Virus record (IMG/VR): IMGVR_UViG_2534681998_000020 | Origin: a virus | Taxonomy: Duplodnaviria; Heunggongvirae; Uroviricota; Caudoviricetes | Length of the DNA stretch: 6,638 nt | Reading direction: 5' to 3' (one strand) | Made by a program: the position numbers | In this document: piece by piece, positions 3,001 through 6,000 of the stretch | Layout of the letters: every line of letters begins with the position of its first letter | Numbering within the stretch: position 1 is the first letter of the stretch

Positions 3001-6000
3001 ATTTATCAGCGACGGAAACGGCCTGGAAGCTGTGGGAACTCATGGGGGTGGTTTATTCGAACCGCTGGATCCAGAAGAACGGGGCCGCACCTTCGAAGCT
3101 CTGGATTGCACAGATTGGCGCGATGACTGAGCAGCAAATCCGGCAGGTCTGCCGCCAGTGCATGGACCGCTGCCGGGCGGGTGAAACATGGCCTCCGGAC
3201 TTGGCTGAGTTTGTGGCACTGATTTCGAAAAGCGGAGCCAATCCATTCGGTCTGACGGTGGATGCTGTGATGGAGGAGTACCGCCGCTGGCGCAATGAGT
3301 CCTGGCGATACGACGGAAGTGATAAGTACCCGTGGTCTCAGCCTGTGCTGTATCACATTTGCCTCGAGATGCGTTCAAAGGGGATTGAGCGCCAGATGAC
3401 CGAAGGGGAATTAAAACGGCTTGCAGAACGGCAACTGACGAAATGGGCAAAGCATGTTAGTAACGGCCTGAGCGTTCCGCCAGTCCGGCGACAACTGGCG
3501 GCCCCCAAACGCCCGTCGGGGCCAACGCCAATTGAGTTGCTGAAACAGGAATATGAACGCCGGAAAGCGGCTGGTTTTGTTTGAGTTGAGAAGTGATTTT
3601 TTACCGGGAGGAAATTTATGGAGACTGTTTTTGACGCACTGAAAGCGATGGGAAAAGCCACGTCGGTATAGCTGGCTGCGCGACTTGATATCAGTCGTGA
3701 AGAAGTACTGAACGAGCTGTGGGAACTGAAAAAGGCTGGCTTCGTTGATAAAAGCGTATACACCTGGCGTGTGGCTGATAACAACGTTCAGCAGGAACAG
3801 CCAGCGCCAGAAGAAACCACCACGGCAACAGAAGCGAAAATCTCAGAGTGCGATTTAACCGCGACGATTGAACAACGCGGACCACAAACGGCGGATGAAC
3901 TGGCTACGCTGTTCGGTACAACATCCCGCAAAGTTGCTTCAACGCTGGCAATGGCAATCAGCAAAGGTCGTCTGATTCGCGTAAACCAGAACGGTAAAAT
4001 TCGTTACTGCATACCAGGTGATAATTTACCAGCAGAGCCGAAAGTTGAATCGGTAGCGGAAACCGATGGTAAAGCCTTTCCTCAGCCAGCCGGTGTTGCG
4101 TTACCGGTACAGAAAGATGCAACACAGGAAGATATTAAAACAGAAACTGTGGCGGACATTGTGCAGTCGCTGCCATCGTTTACTGCAACGCGAGAAGATG
4201 ATTTGATTTTGCCATCGCTGCATATGGCAAATCGCGAACTGCGTAGGGCGAAGAATCATGTCCAGAAGTGGGAGCGAGTCTGCGCCGCGCTGCGGGAGCT
4301 GAACAAGCACCGGGATATGGTTGCCGGGATTTGTCGGAAGTCCGGGCAATGAGCGGATGGTGCAGGCCTGAAATCATGATACTAACAATGAAGGTAAAAT
4401 GCATCGGCAGTCTGATTGGTCGTAGTGAGGCGGCGGTCAGGATGAAAGCCCAGGTTAAGGGAATAAGCCTGATTCTGCGGGGTGATTTTCACCAGTCAAC
4501 AAAATATCCGTAGCGCGATAACGGTCAAAAATTATGGCGCTGACACTTTTGTGCCACTGGAGATGACTGTACCTAAGTTCAGGGGAGAAGAACACGTCCG
4601 GTGGGATGGTCGGGCCAGATTTAAAGGGCAGGTCATGGCTCCAGCCTGTACGCTGGCAATGGAGGCTGCCTGGCGGGAAATTGATATGGGAACCACGCCA
4701 CTCAGGGATTTACTGCCGGTCCAGAGAATAAATTCCTGTTACGGTTACACCACTGTGATCTTGCAAGTGCAGGAAAGTAGGTCTACACGGTAACGCGAGT
4801 GCGTGTAACTTTTGATGTCATTCCCGTAGAAACACCGGACAAACTTTCGCTGACAGGTCATGCAGAAGGTATAAATCTGCAGATTATGGACAATTACGGA
4901 TATCCGGCAAGAGCCGGAAAAAGCATGCCGCCTCTAATTCTCAGTGGAAGATGGACTTGATTATACTCATTGCATTGTCAGAAATAGTTATCCATTAAAG
5001 GCTGGCTATTCCAAACAGGATGTTGATTACAAAAATGTAATCAACATGTAAGGTTTATACTCTTCAATATGCGTATAATTTTCCTTATTTTGTTGACTTT
5101 AAATAACAAGCTATGCACGAGGTAAAGTCGGATAAGTTTATCTGGATGTAATATATATTATTTGTAGTGTTTATAACTTTATTTCATGATAACCAATAAA
5201 AGGAGTTTTTTATGAGGAACATAATGGCAGGTTTTTTAATATTCCTGTCTTCTGCTGCTTATGCTGATATCAATCTGTATGGTCCTGGTGGCCCGCATAC
5301 AGCCTTGCTTGATGCAGCCAAACTTTATGCCGAAAAAACAGGTATTATAGTGAACGTTCATTACGGCCCACAGAACAAATGGAATGAAGATGCCAAAAAA
5401 AATGCAGATATCTTGTTTGGCGCATCAGAACAATCTGCTCTGGCTATCATTCGGGACCATAAAGACAGCTTCAGTGAAAAAGATATTCAGCCTCTTTATC
5501 TGCGAAAAAGTATTTTACTGGTAAAGAAAGGTAATCCTAAAAATATCCGGAGTATTGACGACCTGACCAGACCTGGGATTGGCGTAATTGTTAATGATGG
5601 TGGTGGTACCAGTAATACATCAGGCACTGGCGTCTGGGAAGATATTGCCGGACGTAAAGGGAATATAGAAACTGTCGCCGCAATCCGAAAAAATATTATT
5701 TTATATGCGCCCAATAGCGGAACTGCACGTAAGGCTCTTGAGAATCAGCCTGGAGCAGATGTCTGGATAACCTGGGCTGACTGGGCAGCCAGTAATCCAG
5801 AAATTGGTGATGTCGTGGAAATAGCGCCAGACTACGTGATATGGCGTGATATGAACATTACAGTACGTCAGGATGCAAATGATGAAACCCGTCGATTTGC
5901 AGAATGGCTACAAACCGATGAAGCGGCGCCTGCATTCAAAAAATATGGCTGGACCAGGAAAGGCACTTGACATCCTCGTCCTTCAGGACGTGGATTCTTT

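Follow-up and report, generated by a model that had tools for sequence, protein, structure and literature searches.

In E. coli O157:H7, the DUF1627 gene at 3618-4352 of the window (the whole 6,638-nt stretch of phage DNA analysed here) is very probably a nonsense pseudogene of recent origin, specific to this lineage, within a resident prophage that is itself decaying. A Shine-Dalgarno sequence, GGGAGG, was read from the sequence at 3606..3611 on the plus strand, with a spacing of 6 nt to the ATG at 3618-3620. Its predicted pairing with the 16S rRNA 3' end is -10.3 kcal/mol. Codons 1-17 of the frame opened by this ATG (3618..3668, plus strand; METVFDALKAMGKATSV) are the native N-terminus, which orthologue annotation, conservation and AlphaFold2 assign to helix 1 and the beginning of helix 2 of a first winged helix. 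Codon 18 is TAG (3669..3671). Past it the same frame is stop-free for 226 codons and ends in TGA at 4350-4352. The rest of the frame, codons 19-244 plus TGA (3672..4352, plus strand), was laid out from the frame, PGAP coordinates, Pfam and AlphaFold2. Winged helix 1 continues in it to codon 52. After a linker comes winged helix 2 (codons 77-131), and a second linker, which is disordered, leads to a long C-terminal helix (codons 201-243). The strong ribosome-binding site with its ATG, and the in-frame TAG followed by a long open frame, had been noticed in a first-pass annotation and are borne out. The open frame 3' of TAG is not a chance feature, because the product with TAG repaired to Glu matches DUF1627 (E 8e-93) and HTH_20 (E 1e-5) and is the same as WP_000450692.1 except at codon 18.

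A mechanical ORF list holds only a 193-aa ORF, which is opened by the in-frame GTG at codon 52 (3771..3773, plus strand). It had been remarked that this ORF lacks the first helix; by the AlphaFold2 model, a product begun at GTG 3771 would be without the whole of winged helix 1. For every candidate start in the frame, pairing of the preceding 18 nt with the anti-Shine-Dalgarno sequence was calculated. ATG 3618 is far ahead of all the others, at -10.3 kcal/mol compared with -3.0 for CTG 3672 and -1.5 for GTG 3771, the latter having no Shine-Dalgarno sequence upstream. No usable ribosome-binding site was found at the downstream in-frame starts by this calculation. PGAP nevertheless annotates the O157 copy as a 226-aa protein starting at CTG (WP_077744273.1, 3672-4352) with no pseudogene flag. 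The CTG start is probably an artefact, a homology-driven annotation workaround, because the first codon after the stop gives the longest start that homology-guided annotation allows.

Distribution of the TAG and GAG alleles

The 735 nt of the gene were compared base by base with the alleles of O55:H7 TB182A, O145:H28 RM12761 and O121:H19 FWSEC0006. The window differs from these at a single base, T versus G at 3669. All three possess an intact 735-nt CDS (244 codons; WP_000450692.1) that PGAP starts at the equivalent of 3618. The O111:H8 allele has one substitution beyond the 3669 difference. Since the sister alleles carry G at 3669 and differ by that one base, the ancestral codon is GAG (Glu). 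The first-pass annotation had proposed inspection of this codon in related prophages, which gave GAG (Glu) in O55:H7, O145:H28 and O121:H19. GAG or GAA (Glu) is present in 4/4 DNA homologues aligned at codon 18, and when a stop at position 18 was sought in a 42-protein alignment a sense residue was seen in all. A stop conserved at the same position, which would be expected if readthrough were part of expression, was thus not found in the 4 DNA homologues and 42 proteins.

The two alleles were counted in public genomes using 61-nt queries centred on 3669, for which one mismatch pushes a match below 99% identity. An exact match to the TAG 61-mer occurs in 293 complete-genome records from cattle, food and patients on several continents. 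Of the 19 rows listed, 12 give a serotype, which is O157:H7 in each. For the GAG 61-mer there are 311 genome records with an exact match, O55:H7 DEC5A among them; the serotypes named among the matches listed are O55:H7, O145, O45:H2, O111:NM and O111:H8, with O157 not among them. The allele comparison over 735 nt and the 61-mer counts show that the amber codon (G3669T) is a derived single G-to-T change, confined to the O157:H7 clone as judged from the serotyped records in the listed sample, and they strongly support a recent nonsense pseudogene. The lesion has the marks of a young pseudogene in that it is derived, with intact orthologues in O55:H7, O145:H28 and O121:H19, and in that it is real and fixed in a clade (293 complete genomes, those listed with a serotype all being O157:H7).

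Could T3669 have arisen in sequencing or assembly, or be a variant found in a single isolate only? The first-pass annotation had named a sequencing error as a result that would undo its reading. Such an explanation has in its favor only the prior plausibility of single-base errors, against which stands the identical T 61-mer in 293 independently sequenced complete genomes, including that of a strain of clonal complex (CC) A5. An error was rejected on this count, and its probability is negligible.

The CC A5 strain dates the mutation. PV15-279, which carries TAG, is a glucuronidase-positive O157:H7 strain of CC A5, the group that gave rise to typical O157:H7 (PMC6256406). Since TAG is present in PV15-279 and GAG in O55:H7, the mutation is younger than the O55:H7 stage but older than the A5/A6 split. 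In a base-by-base comparison of two O157 copies, that of the window and that of PV15-279, neither has a second lesion in the gene. This absence would fit neutrality in a very young clone as well as it would fit retained function of a truncated product.

The gene also carries independent lesions in other lineages. O26:H11 11368, O103 RM8385 and others have lost 1 nt at the position equivalent to 4098 (near codon 160), a deletion that takes away the C-terminal helix. An exact 61-mer with the deletion is present in 109 records, and PGAP calls both inspected deletion copies (O26:H11 11368 and strain 02E060) frameshifted. In K-12 strains the Rac copy matches over the first ~55% of the query only and then abuts a lysis gene, suggesting that it is truncated. 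Because the O26:H11 frameshift knocks out the same gene, loss of the gene is tolerated. That the gene was inactivated in both O157:H7 and O26:H11 would fit drift in clonal lineages.

Start site, family and predicted fold

With TAG read as Glu, the product matches Pfam PF07789 (DUF1627) over residues 84-236 with an E value of 8.4e-93 and 308.7 bits (cutoff 28.1). HTH_20 matches residues 4-44 (also given as the first 44 residues), and phrog_630, a family of unknown function, matches residues 1-242 (E 2.5e-121). A profile-free search of 1.84 billion representative proteins returned 176 clusters only, at 50% identity. Residue 1 of the query is aligned to residue 1-4 of the full-length members (22-66% identity), and the N-terminal segment encoded by 3618-3770 can be aligned, from residue 1 on, with 41 homologues whose identity goes down to 22%. 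The best-conserved block of a 42-sequence alignment is the first ~24 residues, METVxDALKAMGKATxxEIAARL, and the family consensus at position 18 is Glu. These alignments place the true start of the DUF1627 gene at 3618. A family start near GTG 3771, which the first-pass annotation had set against its own reading, was rejected because annotated orthologues and distant members alike begin at the site that corresponds to 3618, and because conservation is highest in the N-terminus.

Membership of the family was judged by an N-terminal winged helix from Met1, a match to the PF07789 profile, a position directly 3' of a lambdoid replication module and an unbroken frame of about 240-255 codons. The winged helix is found at 3618-3770 with TAG interrupting it at codon 18, and the profile match and the position are both present. 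The unbroken frame is not found because of the TAG at codon 18, and the locus is therefore a pseudogene copy of a DUF1627/YdaW family member rather than an intact member.

The fold was predicted by AlphaFold2 with the 42-sequence alignment, using the intact allele P0001, which has 2 substitutions relative to the repaired window protein. Residues 4-52 form a helix-helix-helix-strand-strand unit, winged helix 1, and residues 77-131 form a second unit with the same order of elements, winged helix 2. Block-mean pLDDT is 94-98 in both. A long C-terminal helix occupies residues 201-243, with block-mean pLDDT of 93-96 over most of its length. Two linkers have low confidence and the pTM is 0.36. Amber codon 18 maps to helix 2 of winged helix 1. 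The first-pass annotation had suggested that the first 17 residues begin a winged helix which is completed 3' of TAG, that a second segment of the same type follows, and that a prediction for the 244-aa product might reveal two tandem units; the model agrees with it on all of these and adds the C-terminal helix. When the model was searched against the PDB with Foldseek, matches were obtained to the tandem winged-helix proteins ScpB (3w6j_E, E 3.6e-4; 2z99, 4.3e-4), ESCRT-II, SelB WH2-4 and RPC62, and also to single winged helices of the ArsR/MarR type.

The opinion that no function is assignable to the gene holds at the biochemical level, and the family is catalogued as DUF1627, YdaW or phrog_630. 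Only incidental mentions of DUF1627 and ydaW were found in the literature, and no functional study. One mention is of DUF1627/ydaW co-occurring with the PasA/PasC sRNAs, and another is within a list of uncharacterised transcription factors. A systematic library screen places ydaW among the prophage genes that block RcaT, the toxin of retron-Sen2 (bioRxiv 10.1101/2020.06.22.160242). This listing is the sole experimental lead found for ydaW. The anatomy and position of the intact 244-aa protein make it most likely that it binds nucleic acid as an oligomer and is an early-region product of the phage, expressed from the early rightward operon along with the replication genes.

Prophage setting, consequences and rival readings

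The window is part of a paa-carrying lambdoid prophage of E. coli O157:H7, with 99.9% identity to O157:H7 chromosomes across 1-6555. Since the best RefSeq matches cover only 1-6555, the right end of the window derives from a different mosaic. In O145:H28 an identical module lies in a lambda-like prophage integrated at ompW and named PPompW (PMC8112680). Gene order was taken from the annotation of one O157 copy and an Rfam match to sok. First comes ydfC, then the gene for a CI-like repressor (872-1279, minus strand), a Cro-like gene (1356-1583) and a YdaT-like gene (1567-2118). The replication module (2090..3584, plus strand) is 5' of the DUF1627 gene and consists of two plus-strand genes, one for an O-like/DnaT-like initiator (2090-3130) and the other for a lambda P-like helicase loader (3123-3584). 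They were identified by transferred annotation and by PHROG matches. DUF1627 genes lie directly 3' of the replication module, which ends with O/P here and with ydaV in Rac-type prophages. A 54-codon ORF follows (4349..4513, plus strand; WP_001505071.1, phrog_30109), whose ATG overlaps the DUF1627 stop codon as ATGA. This overlap suggests that the ORF is probably translationally coupled to the DUF1627 gene, and the amber codon may exert polarity on it. Farther downstream are a fimbrial pseudogene (4518-5051), paa (5212-5970) and hok/sok (6159-6461).

The neighbourhood of the DUF1627 gene is also decaying. The fimbrial gene at 4518-5051 is a pseudogene in all copies inspected, and in PV15-279 IS1203 is inserted in the O-like gene. 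A search of the 6.6-kb window with ARAGORN found no tRNA gene, and an Rfam scan of the window for RNA elements found sok at 6159-6308 only. Promoter and terminator scans of 3300-5300 gave counts no higher than those of shuffled sequence and were uninformative. With an 851-nt query, 5-7 matching places per O157 genome were seen among the matches listed, which suggests that there are DUF1627 paralogues.

The following course of events would account for the allele. In the ancestor of O157:H7 a single G-to-T transversion turned the GAG (Glu) of codon 18 into TAG. This was later than the divergence from O55:H7 but earlier than that between glucuronidase-positive and typical O157:H7. Ribosomes loading at the strong native site would now release a 17-residue peptide, and full-length protein would not be made except for a trace from near-cognate readthrough. 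With a good downstream restart site absent, the allele would be null or nearly so. ATGA coupling to the ORF at 4349 would be lost, and ~680 nt of untranslated mRNA could expose the transcript to Rho-dependent polarity. We infer that function is lost and that reinitiation is not meaningful.

The first-pass annotation had left a choice between a recent nonsense pseudogene and expression through amber suppression or readthrough. The former part stands, as G3669T is derived, found in O157:H7 only, and accompanied by intact sister alleles. The latter has no support, given that no homologue has the stop, the window has no tRNA and O26:H11/O103 carry a frameshift. Production of full-length protein by amber suppression or programmed readthrough of TAG would be in keeping with the strong native start (-10.3 kcal/mol), with a frame 3' of TAG that is fully open and unchanged, and with retention of the locus as protein-coding by PGAP. 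However, the TAG is a one-base change within one clonal lineage, a sense codon is present in every aligned homologue (GAG/GAA in the 4 DNA homologues and sense residues in all proteins), and the O26:H11 frameshift argues that loss of the same gene is tolerated. An open frame is also expected of a young lesion, and the other alleles of the same prophage that were compared differ by at most one further base. To our knowledge wild-type E. coli has no amber suppressor, and basal UAG readthrough is far below what normal protein levels need. Taken together, synthesis of the full-length protein in this way is highly improbable.

A truncated protein could instead arise by reinitiation at CTG 3672 or GTG 3771. 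It would be without part or all of winged helix 1 and might have residual or altered, for example dominant-negative, function. Ribosomes terminating at 3671 adjoin CTG 3672, and E. coli is known to restart translation downstream of early nonsense codons, as in lacI. The GTG 3771 product would retain the last residue of winged helix 1, winged helix 2, the C-terminal helix and the entire DUF1627 region (84-236), and the two O157 copies compared base by base have no second lesion. Set against this, a Shine-Dalgarno sequence is absent at both CTG 3672 (-3.0) and GTG 3771 (-1.5) compared with -10.3 kcal/mol at the native start, CTG is a very poor initiator in E. coli, its annotation as a start is probably an artefact, and the N-terminus that would be lost is where the family is best conserved. 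We therefore consider a functional product of this kind decidedly unlikely, though low-level reinitiation or readthrough may occur. Also unlikely, and unsupported, is that loss or remodelling of the gene was selected and not neutral, or that a GTG 3771 protein without winged helix 1 is newly active in O157:H7. That reading starts from the widespread and independent occurrence of E18amber in O157:H7 and of the ~codon 160 frameshift in O26:H11 and O103, all in the same effector- and paa-carrying prophage, and it also cites the scoring of a related protein, ydaW, as a retron-toxin blocker. Selected loss could serve to immobilise the prophage or alter its regulation, or to do away with a protein interfering with some host system.

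A young nonsense pseudogene, the preferred reading, has minor practical uses. G3669T is a clean marker of the O157:H7 lineage, since O55:H7 does not have it and both CC A5 and typical strains do. Pan-genome or functional analyses should count the WP_077744273.1 model as a fragment of a pseudogene. Natural null alleles (O157:H7, O26:H11) beside intact ones (O55:H7, O145:H28) offer isogenic-like comparisons for the function of DUF1627/YdaW. The biological weight is small, this being a further case of gene decay within the resident prophage of a clonal pathogen.

Comparison with known systems

The predicted protein resembles ScpB, ESCRT-II subunits, SelB WH2-4 and RPC62 in having two consecutive winged helices, each of three helices and two strands. 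The likeness is at the level of fold only, with 10-21% identity and high rmsd, and DUF1627 adds a C-terminal helix of 40 residues. The flexible link between the two domains in the model (pTM 0.36) accounts for the high rmsd. These matches give no ground for functional inference.

The gene is like YdaW of the Rac prophage in that its DNA is 85-93% identical to Rac-type copies and it comes directly after the replication genes (ydaU/ydaV in Rac), and phage records name homologues "putative YdaW family protein". In contrast to Rac YdaW, the O157:H7 copy is broken at codon 18. Its 3' end (the last ~10 codons) and downstream neighbours also differ from those of the two Rac-type copies inspected; a DUF977 gene lies downstream in one Rac-type copy, whereas the 54-aa ORF, fimbrial pseudogene and paa lie downstream in the window. 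The intact PPompW allele (WP_000450692.1; O55:H7, O145:H28, O121:H19) lies in the same prophage and has the same neighbours, and over 735 nt it departs from the window at 3669 alone, where it makes codon 18 GAG (Glu) and not TAG. PPompW phage records of O145:H28 likewise have an intact DUF1627 gene.

The family, the prophage and the allele are already in public databases, and the phenomenon is the known one of ordinary prophage gene decay. A term search in the main text of the paper comparing O55:H7 with O157:H7 (PMC2806823) gave no hit to the prophage names Sp10 and CP-933O, to ompW or to stop codons. As in other pseudogenes of resident EHEC prophages, one derived lesion is fixed in one clone while orthologues are intact, and pseudogenes and IS elements lie nearby. 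The locus differs from them only in the CTG-start annotation workaround, which hides the lesion in RefSeq.

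Lesions and gene models of the DUF1627 gene

The DUF1627 gene carries a different lesion in other copies of the same prophage. A 1-nt deletion at the equivalent of window position 4098 was found in two prophage copies from other genomes, L002 (position 2049) and L009; its carriers include O26:H11 strain 11368, O103 strain RM8385 and others. The deletion shifts the reading frame near codon 160 and the C-terminal helix is lost. A 61-mer spanning the deletion matched 109 complete-genome records exactly. This deletion is independent of the amber lesion of O157:H7.

Two copies with a frameshift were inspected, one from O26:H11 11368 and one from strain 02E060, and both are flagged as pseudogenes. 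The amber-bearing O157:H7 copy is presented in RefSeq as an intact gene encoding a 226-aa protein, WP_077744273.1 (window 3672-4352), whose start is CTG, the first codon past the amber stop. Because the PGAP model begins after the stop, the nonsense lesion is masked in RefSeq. When window 3550-4400 was used as an 851-nt query, 5-7 places per O157:H7 genome were matched among the matches listed, which suggests that each genome holds several partial or paralogous DUF1627 copies in its other prophages.

Genes 3' of the DUF1627 gene

The ATG of a 54-codon ORF (window 4349-4513; WP_001505071.1, phrog_30109, a family without known function) overlaps the DUF1627 stop codon as ATGA. The ORF is probably translationally coupled to the DUF1627 gene, and so may be affected by the upstream amber codon. 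It is followed by a fimbrial-protein pseudogene (window 4518-5051), annotated as "frameshifted; internal stop". Since this annotation is common to all serotypes inspected (O157, O55, O145, O121, O111 and O26), the fimbrial lesion is old and predates the spread of the prophage module. The AcfC-family adhesin gene paa (window 5212-5970) is intact, and its product has one protein accession across all copies inspected. paa represents cargo that was inserted after the replication region and ahead of hok/sok.

The hok/sok locus and the right-end junction

The hok/sok type I toxin-antitoxin locus occupies window 6159-6461, with sok at 6159-6308 (103.9 bits, Rfam) and hokD at 6306-6461. The HokD accession is WP_032287685.1 in O157 but WP_000813254.1 in the other serotypes. 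Window 1-6555 matches O157:H7 RefSeq copies at 99.9%, whereas the final ~83 bases (6556-6638) are unmatched in those copies and instead match the region downstream of hokD in other E. coli prophages at 99.7%. Among the matches listed, no complete RefSeq genome matched the entire window. A mosaic junction lies shortly after hokD.

Replication and early-region genes

The O-like/DnaT-like replication gene is intact in the window. In PV15-279, a CC A5 strain, it is split by IS1203, an IS3 family element (positions 2031-3243 of L001, the prophage copy of this strain), inserted between the equivalents of window ~2850 and ~2900. This insertion is further decay of the PV15-279 prophage. The Cro-like gene is directly followed by a YdaT-family "toxin" gene (window 1567-2118), which overlaps the O-like gene where the latter starts. 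The ydaS-ydaT arrangement of Rac-type prophages is present in the window, where it is joined to a lambda-type O/P module.
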